Of a stretch of DNA of 64,000 bases, positions 16,232-37,050 are shown piece by piece (within the stretch, counting starts at the first letter, position 1; every line of letters begins with the position of its first letter). Under the pieces are notes generated by a model. The model saw only the letters and a list, made by a program, of their open reading frames with translations, was not told the origin of the DNA and did no database searches. The stretch is from Candidatus Sulfotelmatobacter sp. (GTDB taxonomy: Bacteria > Acidobacteriota > Terriglobia > Terriglobales > Acidobacteriaceae), in assembly GCA_035307485.1 (NCBI GenBank), contig DATGIB010000001.1:161165-225164 (forward strand), read 5' to 3'. A program made the position numbers and the translations under genes.

Positions 16232-16556
16232 ATCGGAAGATGCTTAAATTTTCATCAATTTAGCGGGGTCTGTCTGTTGAAAATACATCTCTCCGATTAC
16301 CAAGGTTTTGCGACCAACTCTATTTGTTTCAAATGTTTACATCCTAGACAGAACAAATCCTGACCATCAGGTTGGCGGGACAGGATGTCCCATGTCCCGG
16401 TGGATGGGACAAAACGCCCGGAACACCCTGCCTCTGCGTCCCGCAACCCATTGAATACATTGAGGTAACGCCAACCGCTTTGGCGTATTACCTGCAGCAT
16501 TGAAGGCTACTTGGGGTGCGGTTGCGCCTGTGGGCGCTTATTTTTGTGGGGGAACG

Positions 16557-18266
16557 ATGAAGAAAGTTCTGATCGCTCTGATTCTTTGTGCGGCAACGCT
16601 GTCATTCGCGGCCGACACCACCAAGCTTTCGCCGGATATACAGAGCATGAAGTCCGCGAAGGCGCCCGTTCAGGTCGTCATCCAGTACCGGAGTGCGCCG
16701 AGTTTGCTAGATCTGAATCTGCTGGGAAGCCTGGGATCGATCCTGAATTCTTTGCCACTGGTAAATGGCATTGTGGCGCAGCTTCCGCTGGCGAATATCC
16801 TTTCGCTTTCGAATCAAAGCAATGTGAAGTACATCAGCCTGGACCGCACACTGTCGCCGAGCTTGAGCAACGCGGCGCCGGCCGTAAATGCTTTTGCGGC
16901 GTGGCAGAGTGGATATACGGGCGCGGGCGTCGGCGTGGCGCTTGTCGATAGCGGCGTCGCCAGCAATTCGGATCTGAATGGCGGCCTCTTGGGGCTTTCG
17001 CGCGTTGTATGGAACCAGAGCTTCGTCCCGGGAAATCCCAGCGCCACGGATCAATTCGGGCATGGAACTCACGTTGCGGGGTTGATTGCGGGGAACGGAG
17101 CCAATTCCACAGGGCCGAACTATACGAAGACTTTCGAGGGAATCGCTCCGAAGGCGAACATCATCAACCTGCGGGTTCTCGACCAGAATGGAGCGGGCAC
17201 CGATAGTGCGGTGATTGCGGCGATCAATACGGCGATCACGTTGAAGCCTCTGTTCAACATCCGCGTACTGAATCTGTCGCTGGGCCGGGCGATCTACGAA
17301 TCGTACACGCTCGATCCGCTGTGCCAGGCGGTGGAAGCGGCATGGAAGAACGGGATCGTGGTGGTGGTCGCGGCCGGAAACAATGGCCGTTATCAGCCGA
17401 CGGATGGTTACGCGACGATCACGGCGCCCGGCAACGATCCTTACGTGATTACGGTGGGTGCGATGAAGACGATGGGGACGCCCACACGCGTGGACGACCT
17501 GATCGCCAGCTACAGTTCCAAGGGACCAACCGTGATCGACGCGATCGCGAAACCCGATATCGTTGCTCCGGGAAATCTTCTGGTGTCGCTCGAAGCTCCG
17601 GGATCGACACTGTACAACGAATATCCCGGAAACCGCGTTCCCTATAACTTTTACGTGCAGGGAGGCAGCAACGCATCGTCGACGAACTACTTCACGCTTA
17701 GCGGGACGAGTATGGCTACAGGCGTGGTCAGCGGAGTCGTCGCCGATCTGCTGCAGAAGAGCCCGTCGCTCACTCCGGACCAGGTGAAGGCGCGGCTGAT
17801 GAAGACGGCGTGGAAGTCGTTCCCGGCGTTCAGCAGCACGACCGATCCGACGACCGGGATCACTTACACCGACCAGTACGACGTATTCACGATCGGCGCC
17901 GGGTACGTTGACGTAGAAGCCGCGATCACCAGTACAGACGTAGCCAAGGGCAGCGCGATGTCACCGGTCGCTACGTACAATTCGACGTCGGGCAACGTCT
18001 ACTTCAATGATTCTGCGAGCGCCGTTTGGAACACGTCGTCCGCTTGGTCGAATGCGGCAGTCTGGGGATCATCGCAGTTTGTGGTTGGTGCGCCGCCCTC
18101 GACGATCAATGGCAGCAACGCTCTGTGGGGAAGCAACGCCCTGTGGGGTTCCAATGCGCTGTGGGGCAGCAATGCCTTGTGGGGCTCGAACGCACTGTGG
18201 GGTAGCAATGCCCTGTGGGGAAGCAACGCTCTCTGGGGAAGCAGCGTTTCTCAAGGCGAGAAATAG
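16557..18266 (+). CDS. secreted S8 (subtilisin-like) serine peptidase with C-terminal GSNALW hexapeptide repeats
   Basis: Signal peptide MKKVLIALILCAATLSFA. Catalytic motifs VALVDSGV, HGTHVAG, SGTSMATGVVSG. Seven perfect GSNALW repeats at the C-terminus. Confidence 0.85.
   Translation: MKKVLIALILCAATLSFAADTTKLSPDIQSMKSAKAPVQVVIQYRSAPSLLDLNLLGSLGSILNSLPLVNGIVAQLPLANILSLSNQSNVKYISLDRTLSPSLSNAAPAVNAFAAWQSGYTGAGVGVALVDSGVASNSDLNGGLLGLSRVVWNQSFVPGNPSATDQFGHGTHVAGLIAGNGANSTGPNYTKTFEGIAPKANIINLRVLDQNGAGTDSAVIAAINTAITLKPLFNIRVLNLSLGRAIYESYTLDPLCQAVEAAWKNGIVVVVAAGNNGRYQPTDGYATITAPGNDPYVITVGAMKTMGTPTRVDDLIASYSSKGPTVIDAIAKPDIVAPGNLLVSLEAPGSTLYNEYPGNRVPYNFYVQGGSNASSTNYFTLSGTSMATGVVSGVVADLLQKSPSLTPDQVKARLMKTAWKSFPAFSSTTDPTTGITYTDQYDVFTIGAGYVDVEAAITSTDVAKGSAMSPVATYNSTSGNVYFNDSASAVWNTSSAWSNAAVWGSSQFVVGAPPSTINGSNALWGSNALWGSNALWGSNALWGSNALWGSNALWGSNALWGSSVSQGEK
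18111..18236 (+). repeat. 7 x 18-bp in-frame tandem repeat encoding GSNALW
   Basis: The units ggcagcaacgctctgtgg / ggaagcaacgccctgtgg / ggttccaatgcgctgtgg and so on differ almost only at synonymous positions, while the peptide is identical in all 7 units. Confidence 0.9.
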
Positions 18267-18283: not shown

Positions 18284-18315
18284 GCCGCAGTCGAGAGACT
18301 GCGGCTTTTTTCTTT
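18284..18315 (+). terminator. rho-independent terminator after the S8 peptidase gene
   Basis: GCCGCAGTC-GAGA-GACTGCGGC perfect 9-bp stem followed by TTTTTTCTTT. Confidence 0.75.
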
Positions 18316-18351: not shown

Positions 18352-19083
18352 CTAGCGGGCCAGCGAGGTTCTGGCCAGTGCGGCGCGCAATTCGTCCGGC
18401 TTGAAACCGTAGGGGCCGGGATTGCTTTTGTAGACTACGCGTCCCGCGGGATCGATCAGATACATGCGCTCGGGCCAGGCCGTGTAGGCGCTCTCGGTGG
18501 AGTTGCCAAATTCGTCGACGACAGCGGGAATCTCAATTCCCAACTTGCGTACGCATGTGCCTGCCACCGCGGTCCGTTCGTCCTCGCTGCGCGGACTCGC
18601 GAACAAGACTTTGTCCTTGAGATTGCTTTCAGTCTGCCAGACATCGGTGGGATGCGCTTCTGTGATGTAGACGACGAGGAAAGAAACTCGACTTTCATAC
18701 TCGTGATAGAGCTTGTTGAGGGCAGGAACCTCCCGCCGGAACGGCGGTCAGGTATAACTTCCGAAGATGAGAACCGCCGGGCGGCCTTGGGCGGAAAAAG
18801 AGGAAAGCTGCACCGTGCCAGTCTTGTCCAATTTTTCCAAGGTGAAGTCGGGAGCATGATCTCCAATTTCGAGCTTTCCGGCGCGGGCGTGCCGCCACAG
18901 CGTGGAGAAGGGCAGCACGAAGAACGCGTAAGGCTCGGGAACCCGCGCCATCACTCGGCCAAACTGCTCGGGCGGACGGCGCATGATGCCATAAAGTCCC
19001 ATGCAGGCCACGACCCACAGCAGCGCAACGACACACAATCCCGTGAGAACTGCCTTGAGTGCTGATTTTTGCTTTGGGCTCAC
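18352..19083 (-). CDS. iodothyronine-deiodinase-like thioredoxin-fold selenoprotein (in-frame UGA = Sec at codon 112), N-terminal TM anchor
   Basis: Track ORFs 18748..19083 and 18352..18606 are in the same frame. The 141 nt between them has no stop. The only interruption is TGA at 18748-18750, in the context AVLIFGSYT-U-PPFRREV. Downstream YITEAHPTDVWQ and AWPERMYLIDPAGRVVYKSNPGPYGFKPDELRAAL parallel the vertebrate DIO core. Confidence 0.75.
18718..18747 (-). other. candidate bacterial SECIS region (two adjacent hairpins immediately 3' of the UGA)
   Basis: The mRNA reads UGA-CCGCCG-UUC-CGGCGG-GAGG-UUCCUGC-CCUC. That is a 6-bp stem directly after the UGA, then a 4-bp stem with a 7-nt loop. 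The fold was not computed. Confidence 0.4.
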
Positions 19084-19199
19084 CGAAACGTTTTCACCCC
19101 ACAGACAAGTGCCGCGATTATAGGGATGCGTAGGGGACGATCAATAACAGGAAAATAGTATTTGAGCTGTTGGCAAGTGCAGATCTTCGCTTGCCGAGA

Positions 19200-20996
19200 T
19201 CAGAACGCGCCGCCGCCACCGCCACCGAAGCCTCCGCCGGAGAAGCCGCCACCACCGCCAAAACCTCCACCGCCAAAACCGGACCCCGTGGAACTGGCGC
19301 GCGGCGCTGAAATGAAGACCTGGTGCATGTCGGTAGCCATGCTGTTCATCGAACTGGAGAAGAAAATCGGATTAAAAGCCGTGCCGGGATAGCCGCCAGG
19401 CCCTACGTACCAGGTTGGCGGGTCTTTCACGATTCCGGCGAAGGCCTGAGCCCAGTGATGCTCGACTCCGAGGGCCATAGCGTAGGCAAGATATTTTTCG
19501 AAGGTGGTCGGCGGCATGAGCTTGAGACGCTCACCGTCCACGCGGTTCATGAACTCCTGAAATCCAAGGACTGCTATGCGGACGCGGCTGCCTTTGAGAG
19601 TCTTGGCGGTCATGACACGCGCGAAGAGCCACCAGATCAGCGCGGCGGTGAGTGCGGAAGCGACGAGCAAGGGAGCGGAGCTGAAGAAATTCGCCCAGCC
19701 CAGGTATTGGAAGAGGCCAAATGGAATCAGAATCACGAAGACAGCGACAACGTTGTAGCCGTTGGCCGATTCGGGGTCGAGCAAGTAGATCCCCTTATTT
19801 TTGAGGGCGGCCATGATGTCCTGCCGGATGATGGGCACGGCGGTATAGAAGCGGTTTTTCAGGCTCGATAGGCGCGCCTCCTGCCCGCCGGCGAAGACGT
19901 TTTCGAGCATGACGCGTTCGTGCGGGACCAGGGTTTGATCCGTGAGAGCGGACAAAGGCTTGAGCAGATGGAATACGTAATCTTTGTGGGTAAAGAGGAG
20001 TCCTTTGTCCTCGGTTTCTTCGATCTTGATGTATCCGCGCACCGCAAGGTCGACCATAGTCGAGGTGATGTCGCGGGGATGAATCGTGTCGTCGAGGAGC
20101 GTCCCCGCCTCGGCAGGCGAGATACCGGGCGGCGGTTCGTACATAGGAGCTACGGACATGCCGGGATCGGGATCGCGGCCTTTGTACCACCAGAGGGTGA
20201 ACATCACCGCGAGCGTTACCAGGGGAAGGAACAGAACCGGGTTGCCGCCCACAAACCAGAAGAAACGGGTGATAGCGCCGGGCTCGCGGAGAATTCCTTT
20301 TGGAATGTAAACGTCGATGGTCAGCCCACCACGCATGGGGAGAGGATTATTCGTTTCGAAGTTCGCCTCCGGACCCACGATCTTGCTGCTGGCATCGCGC
20401 TCAGCAGATCCGTACACGCCGGTAAATGCCTGGGCACTCAGAGAGCCTGTCGCGGAATCGGGAAATCGAACAGCGGCCGTCGCGTGATCGATCGGCACAG
20501 GCCAGTCGTTGCCCGTGACGTTCCAGTAAAACTCATCGTGACTTTCGAAAAAGCGCATGCCATTGCGAACTTCGTAAGCGATCTCGACGGTCTTAGTGGT
20601 ATCCACAGCACCCGGAATGAAGATCTTCAGATTGCGCTCGCCGTGGGAGATCGAAGAATCGTATTTGAGATCGCCGCCCTCTCCGTCACTGACTCGCAGC
20701 ACATGGAGGTAGAGTTCGTAGTTCGTGCCATTGGGGCCGGGATACTCAATTGGAATCTGGCGGTAGATGCCATGCCACTCGCCGACAAAGGCGACTGAGA
20801 TGCGTTCGGTAACCACTGCGCTGCCGTCTTGCGCGATATCGATGCTGTCGTGGAAATCGGAGACGCGCCACGATTTCGCCGCCAGGGGCGCAGCCAAGAC
20901 AAGAATGACCGCAAGTAACTCGGGCAAGCGAAGCTTGCATCGTCGATTTGCGCGGTTCTTGGCGGGCAACGTCTCTACGGCGGAAGTGACGATCAT
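19200..20996 (-). CDS. DUF2207-family membrane protein with Gly-rich C-terminal tail
   Basis: Large N-terminal extracytoplasmic domain, several TM helices, and the tail [31 protein letters not shown]. Sits immediately downstream of lemA, the usual LemA-DUF2207 pairing. Confidence 0.75.
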
Positions 20997-21000
20997 GTTG

Positions 21001-21546
21001 CTAGAACTTCACTTGAACTGGCTCACGGTCCGCGTCTGTGGTTTCGAAGAACTGGCGCTGGGTGAAGCCGAACATTCCGGCAATGATATTGGTTGGGAAC
21101 GATTGAATTTTTGTATTGAGATCCCGAACCACCGCGTTGTAATAACGCCGGGAGTTCTGAATGGAATCCTCAGTCTGGCTAAGCGATCCCTGCAGCTGCG
21201 TGAACTCTTCGGAAGCTTTCAGCTGAGGATAGTTCTCGGCTACGGCGAATAGAGTCTTCAAAGCGCCCGTCAGCTGGTTCTCGGCAGCGGCCTTGTCGGC
21301 CGGAGTCGTGGCCTGCATCGCCTGCGAGCGGAACTTCGCAATATCCTCGAAGGTACCTTTTTCGTGGGCCGCGTACCCTTTGACGGTCTCAACCAGGTTG
21401 GGGATCAGGTCATGACGCCGCTTCAGTTGCACGTCAATATCGGACCATGCCGAGTCGCAACGGACCCGGAGCTGCACGAGCCCGTTGTACATGCCGATCA
21501 GGACGACGGCAATGATGACCAGAATGATCAGGACGGCGATGATCAT
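21001..21546 (-). CDS. lemA: LemA family protein
   Basis: N-terminal TM helix, then the conserved [43 protein letters not shown] LemA core. Confidence 0.9.
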
Positions 21547-35157: not shown

Positions 35158-35245
35158 ACCGAAATTCTACGCCGTCCATGCGAAGGGCGAGAACAGTACC
35201 CCCGCAAAATTTAGGATTCACACCATTCTCGTTTAAAATTCCGGC

Positions 35246-36016
35246 GTGTCCAGGATCGCGGTTTTCCATCTCGGTATCGTGCTTTGCCTCTCGGCTTTGA
35301 CGTTTCCGATCGAGGCGCAGGAGCAGCCCACCAACCCACCTTCCAATCAGCCGCAGGTGCAGGTCCACATGCTCAACGTGTGTACACCATCTGCCGAGGA
35401 GCAGAAGGAGATCGCATCGGCGCTCTCACGGATTCCCAAGCAACCGCTCTTCGGAACGGACTTCGAGGTATCGCGAGGCAAGTCAACGCTTACGGAAATG
35501 CCCGCCATTCTGCAGGCGGGCCAACCGGGCCACGTCGCCGGAGAACCGTCCGTCGCGAGTTATGTCCGCATTCGTCGCGAATACTCTGTGCAGGCCTTGT
35601 TTTCGAGCGTGCAATACTCGTTCAGCAACGATGGGCAGAACATGATCGAGACGATGGTTCTGCACGTGCGGGATCCGAAAGATTTGATCCAAGTCTCACT
35701 CGAAGACAGCGCATCCGCCGTTACAAGCCCCGAGGCGATGCTTTCGGCGAACACTCCGGTCAACCGCGTGCGGCTGGAGCGTTTCGGGAAGTCGTCGATC
35801 GCACTGGCCAGGTGCAATGCAGCCGAAGGAGGCACGCCGCCGGATCAGAGCGCTTACGAACCTCTATTCCGCAGTGCATCCGAGGTGCTCACGAACTATC
35901 GCAAGCTGCTAGGCGCCGCGAGCGTGGTACCGGAAGAACTGGCGAAGATCAACGGGGAGACGAAGAAGAAGGCAGTTTCAGCTACAAAGACAAAGCCGGC
36001 ACCAGTCAACAAATAA
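35246..36016 (+). CDS. secreted hypothetical protein
   Basis: Signal peptide (AVFHLGIVLCLSALTFPIEAQ). 256 aa with a Lys-rich C-terminus. Confidence 0.5.
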   Translation: MSRIAVFHLGIVLCLSALTFPIEAQEQPTNPPSNQPQVQVHMLNVCTPSAEEQKEIASALSRIPKQPLFGTDFEVSRGKSTLTEMPAILQAGQPGHVAGEPSVASYVRIRREYSVQALFSSVQYSFSNDGQNMIETMVLHVRDPKDLIQVSLEDSASAVTSPEAMLSANTPVNRVRLERFGKSSIALARCNAAEGGTPPDQSAYEPLFRSASEVLTNYRKLLGAASVVPEELAKINGETKKKAVSATKTKPAPVNK

Positions 36017-36117
36017 TGCGATGCCGCGGCATGTGTGTGGCGCAAGTGGTGCTGACGATTGGGGAGTTTGCATCGGAAGTCGTACACAGCCATCTAATCT
36101 GCTGCTGAAAAACATCT

Positions 36118-37050
36118 ATGAGCGAAACTCGAAACGTGGTCATTATCGGGTCCGGATGCTCCGGGCACACCGCCGCGTTGTATACAGCACGGGCCAACCT
36201 GAAACCGCTGGTCATCGAAGGCCATGAGCCGGGCGGACAACTATCGCTGACCACTTTGGTCGAGAACTTCCCGGGATTTCCCGAGGGCATCATGGGGCCG
36301 CAACTGGTGGAGAACATGCGGAAGCAGGCCGAACGCTTCGGGGCCGAGTACCGGATGGCGCATCTGACGAGCGCAGACCTCAGCCATCGGCCTTTCACGC
36401 TGCATCTGAGCCATCAGGTTGTTCACACGCAGACGCTGATCATCGCCAGCGGAGCCTCGGCGAGATGGCTGGGCCTACCGCATGAGCAGCAATTGATCGG
36501 GCACGGCGTTTCCAGCTGTGCGACCTGCGATGGTTTTTTCTTCTCCGGAAAGGAAATCGTCGTGGTAGGCGGCGGCGATTCGGCGATGGAAGAAGCACTG
36601 TTCCTCACCCGTTTCGCGACCAAAGTGACAATCATCCATCGGCGGGACTCCTTCCGCGCTTCGAAGATCATGCTGGAGCGAGCCCAAAAACACGAAAAAA
36701 TTCATTTCCTTCTGGATACGGTTGTCGAAGACGTGTTGGACTCCCAAAAGCAGGAGGTCACTGCGCTGAAGTTAAAGAATGTCAAGACGGGCAAAGAATG
36801 GGAATTCCCTACCAGTGCCCTGTTCCTGGGCATAGGCCACGAGCCAAATGCCAAGATGTTTGCCGGACAACTCGACACCGATGCCGATGGTTATTTGAAG
36901 ACGCATAATTACGTGTTCACCAAAGTGCACGGAGTGTATGCCTGCGGAGATGTGCAGGATCGTCGATACCGCCAGGCCATCACAGCCGCCGGCTCCGGCT
37001 GCATGGCAGCGATCGAGGTCGAGAAATTCCTGGAAGGACACGAAAAATAG
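36118..37050 (+). CDS. trxB: thioredoxin-disulfide reductase
   Basis: VVIIGSGCSGHTAALY (FAD), redox-active CATCDG, and VVGGGDSAMEEALFL (NADPH). Confidence 0.92.
   Translation: MSETRNVVIIGSGCSGHTAALYTARANLKPLVIEGHEPGGQLSLTTLVENFPGFPEGIMGPQLVENMRKQAERFGAEYRMAHLTSADLSHRPFTLHLSHQVVHTQTLIIASGASARWLGLPHEQQLIGHGVSSCATCDGFFFSGKEIVVVGGGDSAMEEALFLTRFATKVTIIHRRDSFRASKIMLERAQKHEKIHFLLDTVVEDVLDSQKQEVTALKLKNVKTGKEWEFPTSALFLGIGHEPNAKMFAGQLDTDADGYLKTHNYVFTKVHGVYACGDVQDRRYRQAITAAGSGCMAAIEVEKFLEGHEK

Follow-up and report, generated by a model that had tools for sequence, protein, structure and literature searches.

The stretch analysed here, 64,000 nucleotides of contig DATGIB010000001.1 from Candidatus Sulfotelmatobacter sp. 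(hereafter the window), carries on its minus strand a reading frame at 18352..19083 that is interrupted by one in-frame TGA. We conclude, with a probability of nearly nine in ten, that this frame is, in a soil acidobacterium, a single functional gene for a 243-residue, N-terminally anchored enzyme of the deiodinase family (Pfam PF00837), in which UGA at codon 112 is recoded to selenocysteine (Sec). Taken separately, the in-frame UGA almost certainly encodes Sec. The gene and the codon are located as follows.

18352..19083, minus strand: predicted deiodinase-like selenoprotein, complete coding sequence of 243 codons including Sec112, with a GTG start at 19083 and a TAG stop at 18352-18354
18748..18750, minus strand: predicted Sec codon (UGA), residue 112, in the motif FGSYT-U-PPF

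The open reading frames (ORFs) 18748..19083 and 18352..18606 on the minus strand belong to one reading frame without a stop in the 141 nt that separate them, and the TGA at 18748-18750 is the sole interruption of the 243-codon frame. The initial annotation had described this arrangement exactly, and the peptide strings that it quoted were also exact. Full-length homologs had the same length, likewise with U at residue 112. The gene was expected to be split by gene callers, and indeed the public gene call for the same locus (Logan contig L081) consists of two unrelated 84-aa ORFs with the T4_deiodinase tag on the C-terminal ORF only. A protein search returned about 50 database "proteins" that are C-terminal fragments of about 135 residues beginning just past the UGA, together with about 45 "full-length" homologs with W at the UGA position, one with G, and a minority with cysteine (Cys). 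W occupied this position in many JGI calls on short contigs (P0001-P0045), and the codon was confirmed to be TGA in L169; the W of P0001 was obtained by reading TGA under an alternative genetic code. The full-length JGI entries are named "peroxiredoxin" and carry the spurious W at the catalytic position. Two other database proteins, P0074 and P0049, cross the UGA region in a shifted frame (...LRQLHLTTLPAGGS...) and are artefacts of frameshifted assemblies or gene calls.

The codon was then followed through relatives, using one genome per species for the genome scan and a Cys-form query for the metagenome scan; in each case the best 80 matches were examined, and the motif could be located in 76 of the metagenome contigs. 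Relatives were encoded in at least 595 species-level genomes and on at least 589 metagenome contigs, so that such proteins are not rare in bacteria, contrary to what had initially been supposed. The best 80 genomes were nearly all Acidobacteriota (Terriglobia, Ca. Sulfotelmatobacter). Codon 112 was TGA in 79 of these 80 species representatives, with CGA in the remaining one, and in 76/76 of the contigs, giving TGA in 155/156 Sec-type relatives combined, always within ...FGSYT-U-PPFRREVPA.... The TGA was replaced by CGA (Arg) in L010 (2998-3000) and by GGA (Gly) in L170 (gene 501-1085), with the hairpin described below otherwise intact; the Gly of P0048 was a true GGA codon when the DNA was checked. 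The changes in L010 and L170 are either recent inactivating first-position mutations or base-call errors. TGC was observed at codon 112 in the Cys forms L082, L164-166, L167, and L168, which represent three independent Cys lineages, and farther Cys-type homologs were also present (P0093-P0117). The UGA is thus aligned with Cys in homologs, forming a Sec/Cys pair, and the comparison of orthologue codons that had been proposed as a check gave TGA nearly throughout, with TGC in rare Cys forms.

Coding constraint was examined on either side of the UGA in the 146 Sec-type genes that had enough upstream sequence. The entropy at codon positions 1/2/3 was 0.72/0.52/1.53 bits upstream and 0.53/0.39/1.34 bits downstream. 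The dominance of third-position variation on both sides indicates purifying selection on both halves, so that a conserved UGA is flanked by constrained coding sequence in the orthologs. These results bear on the possibility that the frame is a decaying pseudogene, in which a nonsense mutation struck a former Cys-type deiodinase-like gene, or that the TGA is a sequencing error. Such an origin would agree with the annotation of the gene as two fragments and with a distant relative from Bryobacterales (L083) whose frame shifts twice around the active site. However, the same TGA was found in 155/156 independent assemblies, no further stops or frameshifts accompanied the third-position variation on both sides of the codon, and the UGA is followed by a structure whose synonymous sites are conserved. 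The sharing of the TGA, taken with selection on both halves, excludes a pseudogene or sequencing error for practical purposes, and the chance that we leave to it is negligible. The signs of decay that the initial annotation had named as grounds for rejection, frameshifts and additional stops in close relatives, were absent; the relatives were intact.

The L083 gene (5650-6420; Bryobacterales metagenome-assembled genome (MAG) GCA_026928105.1, JAIXLM010000052.1) retains its TGA despite two frame changes around the active site, and is either a true pseudogene or the product of indel errors in the G+C-rich hairpin region. This sequence was fetched for the covariation analysis and left out of it as frameshifted. 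Copies about 80% identical to the acidobacterial gene were also present in L009 and L020, MAGs labelled Verrucomicrobiia and Polyangiales; these are probably due to mis-binning, recent transfer being less likely.

Next, the joined protein was compared with known families, Cys being substituted for the UGA in the Pfam search. PF00837 (T4_deiodinase) was matched with 120.8 bits against a gathering cutoff of 27 (E=7.5e-35), residues 70-238 lying on model positions 72-235 of 237. Two overlapping, weaker matches above their own cutoffs, to AhpC-TSA (48.4 bits) and Redoxin (37.2 bits), reflect the fold shared within the clan. A phmmer search against the PDB gave mouse Dio3 (4TR3, E=2e-24) and Dio2 (9H48, E=2e-22), followed by the next thioredoxin-fold protein at 1.5e-5. 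A structure model was calculated with AlphaFold2 for P0038, an ortholog with a natural Cys and 52% identity to the window protein (mean pLDDT 94.5, pTM 0.89). The model consists of one long helix at residues 2-33 followed by the catalytic domain. With this model, Dio2 (9h48) and Dio3 (4tr3) took ranks 1 and 2 in a Foldseek search of the PDB, with target-normalised TM-scores of 0.82 and 0.80, and were followed by the membrane-anchored oxidoreductases ResA and DsbE. The fold is accordingly of the deiodinase type, a thioredoxin fold with the Dio-specific insertion, and is closest to the solved Dio structures. The parts of the protein map to the window as follows.

18994..19050, minus strand: N-terminal hydrophobic anchor, residues 12-30, mean Kyte-Doolittle value 2.53 over 19 residues
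18370..18876, minus strand: deiodinase-type thioredoxin-fold catalytic domain, residues 70-238, placed by Pfam, the Dio3/Dio2 alignment, and Foldseek
within 18370..18876, minus strand: loop-D edge motif Y139-I-T-E142-A-H144-P-T-D-V-W149
18553..18555, minus strand: codon of Cys177, Cys in 146/146 Sec-type genes

The UGA was aligned with Sec170 of Dio3, which is Cys in the crystallised mutant. With the roles assigned to Dio3 residues in PMC11592359, Ser167, Thr169, Sec170, Tyr197, Glu200, His202, and Trp207 of Dio3 correspond to S109, T111, U112, Y139, E142, H144, and W149, all of which were invariant in the 146 genes. The T-U-P-[PS]-F motif with the catalytic Sec and the Ser/Thr/Tyr/Glu/His/Trp relay is therefore present in full. 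The hydrophobic anchor was found in 27/27 full-length homologs examined. Thus, the Pfam search, the position of the UGA at the deiodinase Sec site, and the single N-terminal membrane anchor all bore out the initial annotation, and its broader likeness to the animal deiodinases held for the catalytic core, the relay, and the anchor but failed for the thyronine-binding residues, as described below.

The single domain spanning the UGA is also relevant to whether termination at this codon is the normal outcome, yielding a 111-residue membrane peptide and a separate C-terminal fragment, or with the hairpin acting as a pause or attenuator. Two ORFs can certainly be drawn, and Sec insertion is generally inefficient, some truncated product being expected. 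In contrast to such an arrangement, the first start after the UGA is a TTG at 18606, 48 codons on, whose use would remove the invariant YIxEAHPxDxW, and the codons right after the UGA are among the most conserved of the protein. Normal termination is therefore very improbable, and a full-length selenoprotein is the reading that we retain.

Immediately past the UGA, a compact hairpin resembling a bacterial selenocysteine insertion sequence (SECIS) was identified, with positions counted from the U of UGA.

18720..18737, minus strand: bacterial SECIS-like hairpin, +14 to +31, starting 11 nt past the codon
C16-G28, G17-U27, G18-C26, G19-C25, minus strand: upper stem of 4 pairs
18727..18731, minus strand: hairpin loop A20 G21 G22 U23 U24 (A-GGU-U)
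G14-C30 and G15-C29 unbulged, or G14-C31 and G15-C30 with C29 bulged, minus strand: the two lower pairs

In the 81 aligned closest sequences, the wobble positions +15, +18, and +21 of Arg-Arg-Glu were G in 80-81/81, the positions +27 and +30 were almost exclusively C or T, and the Pro wobbles +6 and +9 as well as position +24 varied freely. RNAalifold independently gave a consensus hairpin of +14..+19 with +25..+30. When 150 more divergent sequences were examined, the bulged register (+15:+30 and +14:+31) had 99.3% of its cells paired, including 10 cells with changes on both sides, and was equalled by 0/500 shuffles (slid controls, 43-79%). These changes comprised nine sequences with G15 to C and C30 to G and one with G17:Y27 to A:U. 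The unbulged register was paired in 97.2% of cells, which was not above the shuffles. In the window sequence, the unbulged hairpin had a free energy of -10.4 kcal/mol, or -11.1 kcal/mol with A20-U24 closing a GGU loop, and the bulged one -6.9 kcal/mol. The 4-pair upper stem and the loop are firm, and the two lower pairs may form in either register.

Criteria for bacterial SECIS (bSECIS) elements are given in the legend of Fig. 2 of PMC13188914: a loop of 3-9 nt with G in the first two loop positions, an upper stem of 4-16 bp, 16-37 nt from UGA to loop, and a minimum free energy (MFE) of at most -7.5 kcal/mol. The hairpin falls within all four, with a loop of 3-5 nt, a stem of 6-7 bp, a spacing of 16 nt, and -10.4 to -11.1 kcal/mol. 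As in the E. coli fdhF-type SECIS and the bSECIS consensus, it lies inside the ORF directly 3' of the UGA, starts after 11 nt, and presents G-G-U in a small apical loop; in contrast to fdhF, it is shorter and has no bulged U on the 5' side, and its possible bulged C29 on the 3' side is backed by one covarying subgroup only. The three Cys-form lineages encode the same PPFRRE/Q peptide, yet only 3-5 of the 6 pairs are kept, and synonymous codons such as CGC (Arg) and CCG (Pro) are used, which the 150 Sec forms seldom or never have at these positions. Since the Cys forms keep the peptide but degrade the hairpin, the nucleotide constraint goes with the UGA and not with the peptide. The absence of a conserved stem-loop in orthologues, which had been named as a ground for rejecting the prediction, was thus not observed.

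With UGA in the ribosomal A site, the hairpin 11 nt downstream would recruit SelB·GTP·Sec-tRNASec, and Sec would be inserted with no termination, a mechanism that we infer from sequence signatures. It was also considered whether the UGA might instead be read as a standard amino acid, by an opal suppressor or allo-tRNA, by near-cognate Trp/Cys read-through, or through genome-wide reassignment. Allo-tRNAs of Acidobacteria have been proposed as missense or nonsense suppressors (PMC5389517), and the lack of Sec machinery within 64 kb would suit such decoding. However, TGA is the stop of 11/32 other long ORFs in the window, including the neighbouring upstream gene and a phosphoenolpyruvate (PEP) carboxylase whose match to its model extends to the final residue; since TGA ends so many ORFs, UGA is not reassigned and a general suppressor would be costly. 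Moreover, the UGA stands exactly at the catalytic Sec/Cys position of the family, the bSECIS-compliant hairpin is maintained in UGA-containing genes only, and the ortholog of an acidobacterium that uses Sec has been catalogued among the selenoproteins. Local, hairpin-dependent decoding at the catalytic position is the economical reading, and insertion of a standard amino acid appears improbable, although somewhat less so than normal termination. A scan for other UGA-interrupted genes in the window found none. A TGA-joined ORF pair at 35215..37050 on the plus strand was rejected as a selenoprotein candidate because it represents two adjacent genes; the second of these starts MSETRNVVIIGSGCSGHTAALY and resembles a thioredoxin-reductase-type flavoprotein.

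Several observations weigh against recoding of this gene or against its assignment as an enzyme of known type. No selA, selB, selD, or tRNA-Sec was found in the 64-kb window, where the tRNA scan gave tRNA-Val only; the scan likewise gave no tRNA-Sec in 60 related loci, and motif searches for SelD (GxGCK) and SelB/EF-type GTPases gave no match, either in the window or around the related loci. Regarding the RNA element, the register of the lower pairs is ambiguous, since the unbulged form is more stable and only the bulged form fits the covarying sequences, and a single event may account for nine of the ten double-sided changes. The 81 closest sequences had no covariation (259/500 shuffles were as good), and the 77 nt after the UGA folded no better than shuffles in single-sequence folding (z=-1.05). 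The MFE structure of these 77 nt holds a competing hairpin, which is itself not conserved. Rfam has no model for the element, and its scans at gathering and permissive thresholds gave nothing relevant at the locus. Regarding the protein, the thyronine-binding and turnover residues of Dio3 are missing from the clade of the window protein: His219, Phe258, and Arg275 are replaced by P164, P204, and P222, which are prolines in 144-146/146 genes, and the distal Cys239 is replaced by Ile in the window protein. Finally, the biochemical function is proposed from homology alone. Among the RNA candidates, the competing MFE hairpin, which adjoins the UGA without a gap, was rejected since 29 and 59 of 79 sequences broke two of its pairs, and two weak Rfam matches were discarded as noise.

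Other members of the phylum lend indirect support to Sec decoding: Acidobacteria are recorded with the Sec-decoding trait (PMC1794560), and Occallatibacter riparius DSM 25168 is listed as Sec-utilising, the ortholog of the window protein being among its three selenoproteins (PMC12013277).

In the proposed reaction, Sec112 would sit at the N-terminus of helix alpha1 of the thioredoxin/peroxiredoxin-like fold, beside the deiodinase-specific insertion and adjoining a network of Ser109, Thr111, Tyr139, Glu142, His144, and Trp149. The selenolate would attack the substrate at an electrophilic atom, which is plausibly a halogen of a phenolic compound, and the relay would protonate the leaving carbanion. 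The resulting Se-X or selenenyl intermediate would be resolved by Cys177 with an external thiol reductant. Cys177 is a candidate resolving cysteine by virtue of its invariance; it does not align with Dio3 Cys239, whose Ile counterpart sits about 9 residues further on. In Dio2 and Dio3, the Tyr, Glu, His, and Trp relay is tied to deiodination and Arg275 of Dio3 is a substrate clamp (PMC11592359). Because the thyronine-clamping residues are conserved prolines in the window clade, the substrate would not be thyroid hormone. Deiodinase-like chemistry on a halogenated phenolic is the function that we prefer, at a little under even odds.

The principal competitor is that the protein is a genuine selenoprotein acting not as a dehalogenase but as a selenol peroxidase or an extracytoplasmic oxidoreductase of the ResA/TlpA/DsbE type, with a peroxide or disulfide as the substrate. 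The AhpC-TSA and Redoxin matches above their cutoffs, the rank of the membrane-anchored ResA and DsbE directly after Dio2 and Dio3 in the structural search, and the absence of the thyronine-binding residues are all in keeping with it, and a generic redox role was suggested by the original authors of the family (PMC1088965). The charges flanking the anchor (Lys+Arg, 3.7 vs 2.2) also weakly favour, by the positive-inside rule, an N-in/C-out topology that would place the catalytic domain outside the cytoplasm, as in ResA and DsbE. However, the protein has U-P-P-F in place of the CxxC active site of ResA/TlpA/DsbE, and the corresponding NCBIfam models gave 12-38 bits against cutoffs of 123-359. 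The peroxidatic motif of peroxiredoxins, PxxxTxxC, is also missing; Thr111 adjoins U112 and the nearest upstream Pro is 10 residues off. The deiodinase-specific insertion and the Tyr/Glu/His/Trp relay are invariant in the clade, whereas ResA and peroxiredoxins lack them. This enzyme class, with a peroxide or disulfide as the substrate, remains a serious possibility but a less likely one than the deiodinase-like chemistry.

The window protein is not novel but a further member of an already catalogued selenoprotein clade. Bacterial deiodinase-like selenoproteins with a bacterial SECIS, in Sec and Cys forms, were described from the Sargasso Sea in 2005 (PMC1088965), and the family is listed in reviews of 2022 and 2026 (PMC9312934; PMC13188914). 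Data S1 of PMC12013277 includes the O. riparius ortholog among the "known selenoproteins". This protein, from another species of the phylum, belongs to the same length class with an N-terminal anchor and is 53% identical over 227 residues (E=3e-89), with an identical FGSYT-U-PPFRREVPALNKL segment and shared YIxEAHPTDVWQ and AYTxWPDRxYLID motifs; it is an ortholog and not an identical sequence. With the family on record since 2005 and an ortholog from Acidobacteriota since 2025, there is little new in kind.

The marine Sargasso Sea/GOS reference (MBO99264.1) also belongs to PF00837, with Sec at the corresponding site and a bacterial SECIS right after the UGA. It differs in being 26% identical over 148 residues, in having U-S-E-C (the "UxxC" of the reviews) where the window clade has U-P-P-F, in lacking the EAHPxDxWQ edge motif, and in carrying a long C-terminal extension with no N-terminal anchor. 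Vertebrate Dio2 and Dio3 (9H48, 4TR3) gave the best matches in sequence and fold and have the single N-terminal anchor and G-S-x-T-U-P-P-F; the Ser, Thr, Tyr, Glu, His, and Trp of the proposed proton relay are kept together with the loop-D edges. They are, however, about 30% identical, differ at the residues replaced by prolines and Ile with Cys177 invariant instead, and carry their SECIS in the 3' untranslated region, in contrast to the bacterial-type element within the coding region of the window gene. For NCBIfam NF038285 ("deiodinase_rel"), the C-terminal 165 residues matched model positions 177-341 of 347 with 192.1 bits, below the curated cutoff of 250, and about 176 N-terminal model positions had no counterpart. 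The score below the cutoff and the unmatched N-terminal half indicate that the window clade is not an equivalog of this model. No experimental characterisation of a bacterial deiodinase-like member turned up in the searchable literature, and nothing was found there on Sulfotelmatobacter with selenocysteine.

The surroundings of the gene include the following elements, of which the promoter and the Shine-Dalgarno-like run are pattern matches only.

19094..19100, minus strand: Shine-Dalgarno-like run GGGGTGA, read from the sequence
19117..19144, minus strand: sigma-70-like promoter, TTGATC-16 nt-TATAAT, 34 nt upstream of the GTG
19200..20996, minus strand: DUF2207 gene, whose protein ends in a Gly/Phe-rich tail
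21001..21546, minus strand: LemA gene, forming with the DUF2207 gene a pair directly upstream, on the same strand as the deiodinase-like gene

The promoter matched the consensus at 10/12 positions, one site being found where 0.2 were expected. Besides LemA and DUF2207 upstream, the neighbours include a convergent gene for an S8 protease and one for an HD-domain protein. LemA/DUF2207 and other neighbours adjoined the deiodinase-like gene in 20-30 of 80 related loci; this partial synteny gave no functional or pathway lead. The window is acidobacterial: its G+C content is 57%, the nearest relatives were all from Terriglobia, and a match to an Acidobacteria-specific VWA family was also present in it. 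The S8/subtilisin-like protease ORF (16500..18266, plus strand) converges on the deiodinase-like gene, and an 18-nt tandem repeat of 7.2 copies within it (18114..18243, plus strand) corresponds to seven C-terminal GSNALW units. In the 85-nt gap between the two genes, a hairpin followed by a T-run resembles an intrinsic terminator (18289..18306, plus strand); the T-run serves the plus-strand gene, and no U-run follows the hairpin on the minus strand.

The immediate value of these findings is an annotation correction together with a well-supported description of the SECIS. A real gene is listed in two fragments, under the name of hypothetical protein, or with Trp wrongly assigned to the UGA, and this split or mis-called annotation is repeated across hundreds of acidobacterial genomes and metagenome contigs. 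The SECIS of the clade is a compact, highly constrained hairpin, and the constraint is gone in the Cys forms. Deiodinase-like proteins are common among the Acidobacteriota of soil and contain Sec, not Cys, almost throughout, and the clade keeps the catalytic machinery of the animal deiodinases without the residues that bind the hormone. In its active-site motif and relay residues, the acidobacterial T-U-P-P-F clade is nearer to the animal deiodinases than is the marine bacterial reference. It is conceivable, although unlikely on present grounds, that the clade represents a true reductive dehalogenase that depends on selenium and whose substrates are natural halogenated phenolics in soil and peat. 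If so, it would be a prokaryotic functional counterpart of the deiodinase chemistry of animals and possibly its evolutionary source, as well as an overlooked and very widespread participant in the cycling of organohalogens and iodine in soil.

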